From a virus: a stretch of DNA of 64,000 nt. Shown here piece by piece: positions 9,147 to 9,710 of the stretch (position 1 is the first letter of the stretch; each line of letters begins with the position of its first letter). Below the pieces are notes generated by a model. That model did no database searches and had not been told where the DNA came from. It was given only the letters and a program-made list of their open reading frames with translations. Position numbers and translations under genes: made by a program. The DNA is taken from the IMG/VR virus record IMGVR_UViG_3300048589_001082, positions 1-64,000 of that record; one strand, given 5' to 3'.

Positions 9147-9710
9147 TTACTCCTTTGTCTTGCCGATAGATGACTGATACGCCTTGACCGCCGCCAGCGG
9201 CGGCCACTCCGCTTCCGGCCGTCGCGCCCGCGCCACGCGGGCCAGTTCGGTCAGCCGGAAGTTCCGATACGCGCTTTCCACCAGATGGCGGGCGCGAGCC
9301 GACTTCGATTCGCCGCCCAGTTCCTCGGCGTCGAGGCCGATGTCCCGCGCCAGGTTGTCGATCTCCTCAATGGAGAAGTGGTCGCCGATGCGGTGGTAGA
9401 TGGCGACCAGCGGGTTGTCGGTCGCCCCGTCGGCCGCCGTCGGCCCGGTCACGACCAGCCAGGGCGGCGGGGGAATGGGCGTGCCGCCCAGCTCCACCAC
9501 CTGCCCGCGCAGTTGCGCCGACCAGACGCGGTAGCCGGACAGGTTCAACTCCAGCCCGACCACGCGCAGGGTCAGCTCTTCCAGTTGGTCGGTCAGGTGA
9601 TCCATCTGGGTGAAGATGGTCGATGACCGACGGCCGCGCCAGGCCGAGTGCAAAACGACGGCCGCCACGCAGGCCAGCAGCAGCGCGGTCAGCGCCAGTT
9701 CAGGACTCAT
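9147..9710 (-). CDS. Membrane protein: TM + coiled coil + Pro linker + EAD7-like (death-like) domain
   Basis: Start MSPELA (ATGA overlap, GGAGG RBS). C-terminus HFSIEEIDNLARDIGLDAEELGGESKSARARHLVESAYRNFRLTELARVARARRP. Confidence 0.7.
   Translation of the reverse strand: MSPELALTALLLACVAAVVLHSAWRGRRSSTIFTQMDHLTDQLEELTLRVVGLELNLSGYRVWSAQLRGQVVELGGTPIPPPPWLVVTGPTAADGATDNPLVAIYHRIGDHFSIEEIDNLARDIGLDAEELGGESKSARARHLVESAYRNFRLTELARVARARRPEAEWPPLAAVKAYQSSIGKTKE

Follow-up and report, generated by a model that had tools for sequence, protein, structure and literature searches.

Gene 9147-9710 of the IMG/VR virus record IMGVR_UViG_3300048589_001082 encodes a small membrane protein carrying effector-associated domain 7 (EAD7), and we propose, at a probability of about 0.4, that this protein is an adaptor-only decoy that is made late in infection and binds host EAD7 proteins at the membrane. 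EADs have been predicted, with little testing so far, to act as adaptors in immune and suicide systems of multicellular bacteria, where they would be the counterparts of animal death domains. The stretch analyzed here (the window) comprises 64,000 nucleotides (nt), positions 1 to 64,000 of the record; the whole record has 100,464 nt and is 89% complete. The gene and its parts are as follows.

9147..9710 (stop included), minus strand: gene for a 187-amino-acid (aa) protein with a transmembrane (TM) helix, coiled coil, proline linker and EAD7; based on the open reading frame (ORF) and its translation, the ribosome-binding site, homologues, and the ratio of nonsynonymous to synonymous substitution rates (dN/dS)
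9639..9698, minus strand: N-terminal TM helix, aa 5-24, then RGRR; Kyte-Doolittle maximum 2.32
9486..9614, minus strand: heptad-repeat (coiled-coil-like) helix, about aa 33-75; based on invariant alignment columns, a/d spacing and a helix in the AlphaFold2 (AF2) model
9408..9485, minus strand: proline-rich linker TPIPPPPW (aa 77-84) plus a variable spacer, together aa 76-101; based on the sequence, the alignment and a predicted local distance difference test (pLDDT) score <50
9216..9398, minus strand: EAD7 domain, aa 105-165; based on Pfam PF19960, the AF2 model and structural matches

Residues 105-165 matched the Pfam EAD7 profile (PF19960) at positions 2-62 of 62, with an E-value of 2.7e-12 and 46.7 bits, the curated gathering cut-off being 32 bits. 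A search of the whole record gave identical coordinates at 49.6 bits and no second EAD7 anywhere in the 100,464 nt. An earlier note on this DNA, made from the sequence without database searches, had named the domain and suggested a profile search, which confirmed the name over the full profile length; its layout of TM helix, coiled coil, PIPPPP linker and helical domain was likewise upheld by the sequence, the AF2 model and Pfam. The domain is located near the C-terminus, no catalytic family was matched in the protein by Pfam, and apart from EAD7 the protein consists of TM helix, coil and linker only, so that fusion of an EAD to an effector or signalling domain is not the case here. Because there is no enzymatic or effector part and no second phage EAD7, the domain would have to pair either with itself or with EAD7s of the host.

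The start of the gene is the ATG at 9710 and the stop is at 9147-9149, with a ribosome-binding site, GGGAGG, located 7 nt 5' of the ATG. A longer GTG-started ORF, 9147-9995, was rejected as the gene; it crosses the upstream gene out of frame and was used by 0 of 15 close homologues. Values of dN/dS were 0.1-0.5 in every part, indicating that the gene is functional along its entire length. In the closest pair of homologues, dN was 0.115 for EAD7 and 0.022 for the TM-coil part, an approximately 5-fold difference that we counted in favor of the decoy; at larger distances the parts were equal. The helix at aa 33-75, in which hydrophobic a/d spacing can be read from the sequence, contains the best conserved block in the alignment of the close family (15 homologues), the nearly invariant ELTLRVV..LEL..GYR.W..QLRGQ. 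Linker residues P78, P81, P82 and W84 were invariant in the same alignment, and the spacer varied.

The AF2 model made with the family alignment had a pLDDT of approximately 90 over aa 100-180, which formed five or six helices, and the model of the domain only had a pLDDT of 85.6. The TM helix and coil were modelled as a single long helix, aa 3-57, with low monomer confidence; helices that pair with partners usually score low as monomers. When the domain was compared with structure representatives by VIA-align, the best match was 9frr_A (Z 8.3, 2.6 A over 76 residues), followed by 8ss1_A, a bacterial death-like domain (Z 7.8), and 6mks_A, the CARD of NLRC4 (Z 7.5); Z values below about 8-13 are not decisive for helical bundles. 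The top matches were all CARD or Death-like, with root-mean-square deviations of 2.2-2.6 A over 73-76 residues, and the next 20 domain matches were nearly all death folds (Apaf-1, caspase-1, RIP2, NOD1, FADD and others). In Foldseek searches of PDB and BFVD there was no significant match; death folds ranked first for the domain model (8srz_A) and second to fourth for the full model (5wve_Y), with E-values of at least 0.9 and TM-scores of 0.55-0.59. The Pfam bDLD profile did not match the protein. These models suggest that the EAD7 domain likely adopts a death-like fold. The predicted fold is closest to CARD and Death-like domains, which agrees with the death-like adaptor named in the earlier note, although the Foldseek E-values fall short of significance.

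Lysine and arginine residues averaged 0.14 before the TM helix compared to 3.24 in the 15 aa after it, and were more numerous after the helix in 62 of 63 family members. The N-terminal stub before the helix had a median length of 5 aa across the family. Under the positive-inside rule, this charge bias predicts an N-out/C-in topology in which the coil and EAD7 face the cytoplasm. The prediction bears on one alternative, an i-spanin-like or other envelope-spanning lysis protein whose coil and C-terminal domain would lie outside the membrane. Rz-type i-spanins consist of an N-terminal TM helix and then a coiled coil with a proline-rich break, encoded in the lysis region, and the protein resembles them in both outline and position. 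However, i-spanins require N-in/C-out, the opposite of what the charges predict for 62 of the 63 members, no o-spanin partner was seen, and EAD7 is cytoplasmic in all described contexts (PMC7159879). We rejected membership among the Rz-like i-spanins and consider this alternative extremely improbable.

In the proposed decoy mechanism, the single N-terminal helix would anchor the protein in the cell membrane with a tiny stub outside, leaving the heptad helix, proline linker and EAD7 in the cytoplasm. The protein would be made together with the overlapping 3-TM holin-like protein encoded upstream, within the tail and lysis operon. In likely hosts, the partner EAD7s would be parts of STAND NTPases, CHAT proteases and comparable proteins of immunity or suicide. 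EADs couple by homotypic recruitment (Kaur et al. 2020, PMC7159879), and homotypic EAD7-EAD7 binding may hold or cap the host proteins at the membrane late in infection, when the capsid, portal and terminase proteins that such sensors would detect are abundant. Effector recruitment and abortive cell death would then be blocked from pre-empting the timed lysis of the phage, much as vFLIP and the CARD-only and PYD-only proteins, inhibitors made of a death fold alone, act in animal viruses and cells. In the Avs literature, late phage proteins are known to be sensed by STAND NTPases. We ranked the decoy as most likely because EAD7 is the conserved, host-like part of the protein and because soluble EAD7-only versions exist in other phages.

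The comparison with vFLIP MC159 and the CARD-only and PYD-only proteins rests on a shared plan, a virus-carried protein with an adaptor only; on a predicted fold near CARD, DD and DED (the match to MC159 had a Z of 5.4); and on a proposed homotypic block of effector recruitment. In contrast to those inhibitors, the phage protein is membrane-anchored and encoded in a lysis region, no sequence relationship was shown, and inhibition is a proposal here.

Cellular EAD7 domains in the protein database were 40-48% identical to the phage EAD7, as near to it as distant phage copies. The long hits were cellular and carried three to five EAD7 domains in tandem; they comprised nSTAND1, NACHT-like, CHAT and bDLD1 proteins. 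A genome scan with the EAD7 motif of the phage family yielded six confirmed loci, all in metagenome-assembled genomes (MAGs) of Chloroflexota (Ardenticatenaceae, Anaerolineae and unclassified). Five of these MAGs, of 6-7.7 Mb, had 23-41 EAD7 matches each, in frames of 85 to >1600 aa, and any EAD7 was found in 9 of 301 evenly sampled Chloroflexota genomes. EAD7 is therefore rare overall and a hub adaptor in certain large genomes; the view that it is common in Chloroflexota, as given in the earlier note, is supported for some members of the phylum, where it is greatly expanded. The host of this tailed phage is likely a member of the Chloroflexota, and probably a filamentous one. Among GenBank phage records the best match to the large terminase was 39% identical, and cultured relatives therefore give no hint of the host. 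Terminase relatives from Chloroflexota reached 48% identity, and since those genomes were without EAD7 they are not host pointers. No cognate EAD7 on a core component (VMAP, iSTAND, STAND or GAP1) was found in the phage record, in which the neighbors of the gene are tail, membrane and lysin genes; such a copy could be present in the host only.

Full-length relatives of the protein numbered 15 in a word-indexed search (182-188 aa, 46-99% identity), and a profile search of 1.84 billion cluster representatives returned 4411 proteins at E below 1e-3. A set of 176 EAD7-bearing proteins and locus ORFs included 69 short proteins with a single C-terminal EAD7, and 66 of these 69 had an N-terminal hydrophobic helix. 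At least 66 cluster representatives follow the TM-coil-EAD7 plan, and they belong to viral contigs. A wide alignment of 39 members showed a common plan with a variable coil, EAD7 being the best conserved part. The nearest ESM Atlas clusters were EAD7 proteins of 172-197 aa for which 50-80% of the recorded taxa were viruses. The short type was strongly clustered when 352 EAD7 domains were placed on a tree, with 10 label changes compared to 63 in shuffles; the tree had few columns and its sample was drawn with a phage profile, and it therefore shows few origins and not one. Short EAD7 ORFs in cellular genomes had no TM helix. The family is old, diverse, mainly viral, equipped with a fixed membrane partner and previously undescribed. 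The earlier note had this phage capturing a host immune adaptor, which suggests a recent event and is not supported as written, given a mainly viral family with a fixed partner and an EAD7 that stands apart from cellular ones on the tree.

A degenerate EAD7 pattern, one of two hand-made DNA patterns that found relatives, detected 20 IMG/VR contigs, all with real EAD7 ORFs. Three architectures were present on the 20 contigs: the plan of the window gene, with an N-terminal TM helix, coil and EAD7; a tail-anchored form in which an N-terminal EAD7 precedes a C-terminal TM helix; and a soluble form, 89-136 aa long, that consists of EAD7 only. The tail-anchored and soluble types were located at L036:4264-4734, L037:2973-3413 and L044:4435-4896, and on L032, L038, L043 and L046; the soluble ones among these had about 89-101 aa, and several of the genes came directly after a relative of the 98-aa membrane gene described below. 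The existence of tail-anchored and soluble versions fits a decoy in which EAD7 is the active part. The stalk between membrane and EAD7 ranged from 21 to 116 aa across the family, and one 236-aa member, at L040:4262-4969 on the plus strand, had a duplicated coiled-coil segment and was matched twice by the full-length profile.

Other searches for relatives were restricted in what they returned. The close-family alignment found near-identical viral contigs and three short metagenome contigs only, and had no match in species-representative genomes; sub-alignment A6 and the single proteins P0026 and P0041 had no match in IMG/VR; and the gene family had no match in 50,697 GenBank phage records. The N-terminal half had no shorter relatives without EAD7, only sub-threshold look-alikes in the ESM Atlas, and these searches thus gave no demonstration that the gene arose when EAD7 was fused to an older lysis protein of TM and coil.

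The genes on either side provide the evidence for a different reading. All are on the same strand as the EAD7 gene, and those closest to it are listed here.

10068..14222, minus strand: 1384-aa tail-fibre-like protein, ending 10 nt before the partner gene; based on the ORF and operon continuity
9707..10057, minus strand: upstream partner, a 116-aa protein with about three TM segments and a basic C-terminal tail; based on hydrophobic segments and synteny (family A8)
8844..9140, minus strand: downstream 98-aa 3-TM protein; based on hydrophobic segments and on relatives (family A10) beside phage EAD7 genes
8576..8815, minus strand: 79-aa acidic soluble protein, conserved in the close lineage, with no Pfam or PHROG family match
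7385..8563, minus strand: calcineurin-like phosphoesterase (Metallophos); Pfam score of 21.6 bits (cut-off 21.5), phrog_7339 at E 4.5e-32, and synteny
3878..7291, minus strand: giant multidomain GH25 muramidase of 1137 aa, a putative endolysin; Pfam Glyco_hydro_25 at E 6.6e-22 over aa 625-789, and PHROG endolysin families

The TGA stop of the 116-aa gene overlaps the ATG of the EAD7 gene in an ATGA at 9707-9710, and the 98-aa gene starts six bases past the EAD7 gene. Further upstream on the same strand are genes for the large terminase, portal, protease, tape measure and tail, and the GH25 lysin gene lies 1.9 kb downstream with three genes between. No promoter-like sites were found at 7000-14600, and terminator-like sites were no more frequent there than in shuffles; late co-transcription of the tail genes and the module is inferred from this. 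The setting is that of holins and antiholins, a small membrane protein in a late operon shared with an endolysin, and the lysis-cassette placement given in the earlier note is supported by the position in a late operon, between small membrane genes and near a GH25 lysin. Its account of the immediate neighbors was right about the ATGA overlap with the upstream 3-TM gene, and its "holin" at 8844-9140 is a putative one that matches no holin family. The EAD7 protein and both membrane neighbors were without a match among the Pfam and PHROG lysis families; the best match of the 116-aa protein, which belongs to no known family, was Phage_holin_2 at E 0.5. The upstream 3-TM gene is as holin-like as the downstream one.

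Independent loci with the complete gene and sufficient flanking sequence numbered seven (the window; L004/L005; L006, L007, L008; L010, L011, L012). A homologous 3-TM gene of family A8 was directly upstream of the EAD7 gene, overlapping or abutting it, in 7 of 7, even at an identity of only approximately 35% between the EAD7 proteins. On the 20 contigs most phage EAD7 genes were preceded by a small multi-TM gene, directly or within approximately 320 nt, and this gene was often a relative of the downstream 98-aa gene of the window. Such A10 relatives adjoined phage EAD7 genes in L010, L012, L031, L034, L043, L046 and L048. The slot after the EAD7 gene in L011 was occupied by a holin, phrog_565. 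The earlier note had suggested a hunt for TM, coiled-coil and EAD genes beside holins; IMG/VR contigs did provide a family with multi-TM neighbors, the one after the EAD7 gene in L011 being a PHROG holin. Families A8 and A10 were not found in the Chloroflexota genomes searched, and the two-gene membrane/EAD7 module appears to be a phage invention built round a cellular domain. In three loci (L031:8077-8808, minus strand; L033:2-664, plus strand; L048:687-1205, plus strand) the upstream 3-TM ORF had no stop for 240-300 nt beyond its last TM segment and thus enters the EAD7 gene out of frame, as a real overlap, a frameshift site or a high-GC artefact.

These data are consistent with more than one possible scenario. 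The protein could be a lysis-timing partner that regulates or assists the 3-TM holin-like protein, in the way of an antiholin or by holin clustering, and whose EAD7 assembles only with itself; cooperative, death-fold-like oligomerization under the membrane would serve as an all-or-none trigger of hole formation, and host EAD7 would be uninvolved. The ATGA overlap, the pairing in all seven loci, the multi-TM genes that most other phage EAD7 genes follow, the position between tail genes and GH25 lysin with no intervening promoter, the PHROG holin in L011 and the coil as the most conserved block of the close family all argue for it, and the structural matches include filament-forming CARDs. Nevertheless, the two membrane neighbors match none of the known holin families, some phage EAD7 proteins are soluble and consist of EAD7 only, and both the closeness to cellular EAD7 and the finding that the genome motif scan hit EAD7-rich Chloroflexota only would be left unexplained. 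We regard this reading as tentative and somewhat unlikely. When the upstream 3-TM protein and residues 1-96 of the EAD7 protein were modelled as a complex, the score was 0.01, which carries no weight either way.

Several of the same observations weigh against the decoy. A plain decoy leaves unexplained why the overlap with the 3-TM gene is strict and why the coil is so strongly conserved among close relatives, and both features point to an additional or alternative job inside the membrane or the lysis machinery. Anti-defence genes are usually early, and this gene is late. As dN/dS was below 1 throughout, the domain taken as a whole shows none of the marks of an arms race. The host is not among the five EAD7-rich genomes; the EAD7 of the window was at most 43% identical to their copies, and their GC content was 53-59% compared to approximately 70% for the phage.

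Two further scenarios join membrane coupling with EAD7 contact. The protein may tap host death signalling, its membrane EAD7 joining activated host platforms and then triggering the holin-like protein or drawing in effectors, so that the phage would lyse at once on host suicide or host effectors would aid lysis; this corresponds to the second option of the earlier note. The evidence for host EAD7 contact that bears on the decoy, together with the tight coupling to a membrane protein, applies here as well. However, this reading is purely inferential and needs two unproven interactions, and soluble EAD7-only versions would be unable to pass clustering on to the membrane; we consider it distinctly unlikely. 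The other scenario is that the lysis switch of phages of multicellular Chloroflexota is wired to a death-fold adaptor, with EAD7 polymerization, its own or that of host platforms, coupled to the holin-like protein, which we find doubtful. If it were true, phage lysis and bacterial programmed cell death would share one homotypic-assembly trigger, and bacterial viruses would have their own equivalent of death-receptor or vFLIP biology, along with holin regulators of a new class.

Alternatively, the 3-TM and EAD7 proteins could be a phage-borne exclusion or defence pair that guards a lysogen or infected cell and is plugged into the host EAD7 network. Some members are on temperate elements, and in L010 an integrase is 1.1 kb from the module. 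Against this, no integrase was found in the present phage record, the gene is inside a late operon and is not a moron with its own promoter, and PADLOC defence models did not match the EAD7 gene or its two membrane neighbors at E up to 1. Such a role is very unlikely.

The protein has the domain of the described EAD7 systems (PF19960 of NTP-dependent conflict systems; PMC7159879; PMC8195603) by HMM (hidden Markov model), and as in those systems the domain is small, all-helical, non-enzymatic and terminal. It differs in being phage-encoded, in having only a TM helix and coil fused to EAD7 with no effector, signalling enzyme or core NTPase, in the lack of a second EAD7 in its genome, and in its fixed neighbor, a 3-TM membrane protein. 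The protein is not a member of the described NTP-dependent conflict systems, since it comes with no core NTPase and no effector fusion and its genome encodes no cognate copy. Antiholins and holin partners (T4 RI and RIII, lambda S107 and the second holin-like proteins of mycobacteriophages; PMC11413866, PMC13056207) are likewise small, coupled to a holin-like gene and encoded in a late operon, but no homology to them was found, they have no cytoplasmic immune-adaptor domain, and the partner here is outside the recognized holin families. Fas and TNFR1 are built in the same order, with a small portion outside, a single TM helix and a death-fold-like adaptor in the cytoplasm; this is an analogy only, as the ectodomain here is approximately 4 aa and ligand sensing is not indicated.

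No report of a phage-encoded EAD was found in the literature searched, in agreement with the earlier note, which knew of no described example, and PMC7159879 and PMC8195603 mention neither phage EADs nor holins. A widespread family of effector-less phage EAD7 proteins beside holin-like genes would be a natural probe of the EAD network, and direct contact between phage and host EAD7 is predicted. The family may be the first bacterial-virus analogue of viral death-fold decoys, and it may represent a hidden mode of lysis control in phages of Chloroflexota, whose lysis systems are essentially unstudied.

The remaining observations concern the neighboring genes. The 98-aa protein had no Pfam or PHROG holin match, and its 93 database relatives (approximately 95-105 aa) had neither a Pfam domain nor a name; family A10, with two invariant cysteines between the second and third hydrophobic segments, is probably an unannotated, phage-specific membrane family. 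Conservation of the phosphoesterase gene, two genes past the EAD7 gene, was limited to the close lineage. Its protein carries an extra N-terminal domain of approximately 140 aa, and translation probably begins at an internal start codon, as it does in L006 and L008. In host systems the nucleotide-processing domains that are coupled to EADs include calcineurin-like enzymes (PMC8195603), so the phage enzyme might conceivably break down a host signal. In L040, a homologue of the GH25 giant with similar size and domain order (8476-11679, plus strand) was located 3.5 kb downstream of the EAD7 gene, and a weak relative of the 79-aa protein came after the GH25 gene; the giant lysin may be typical of this phage group.
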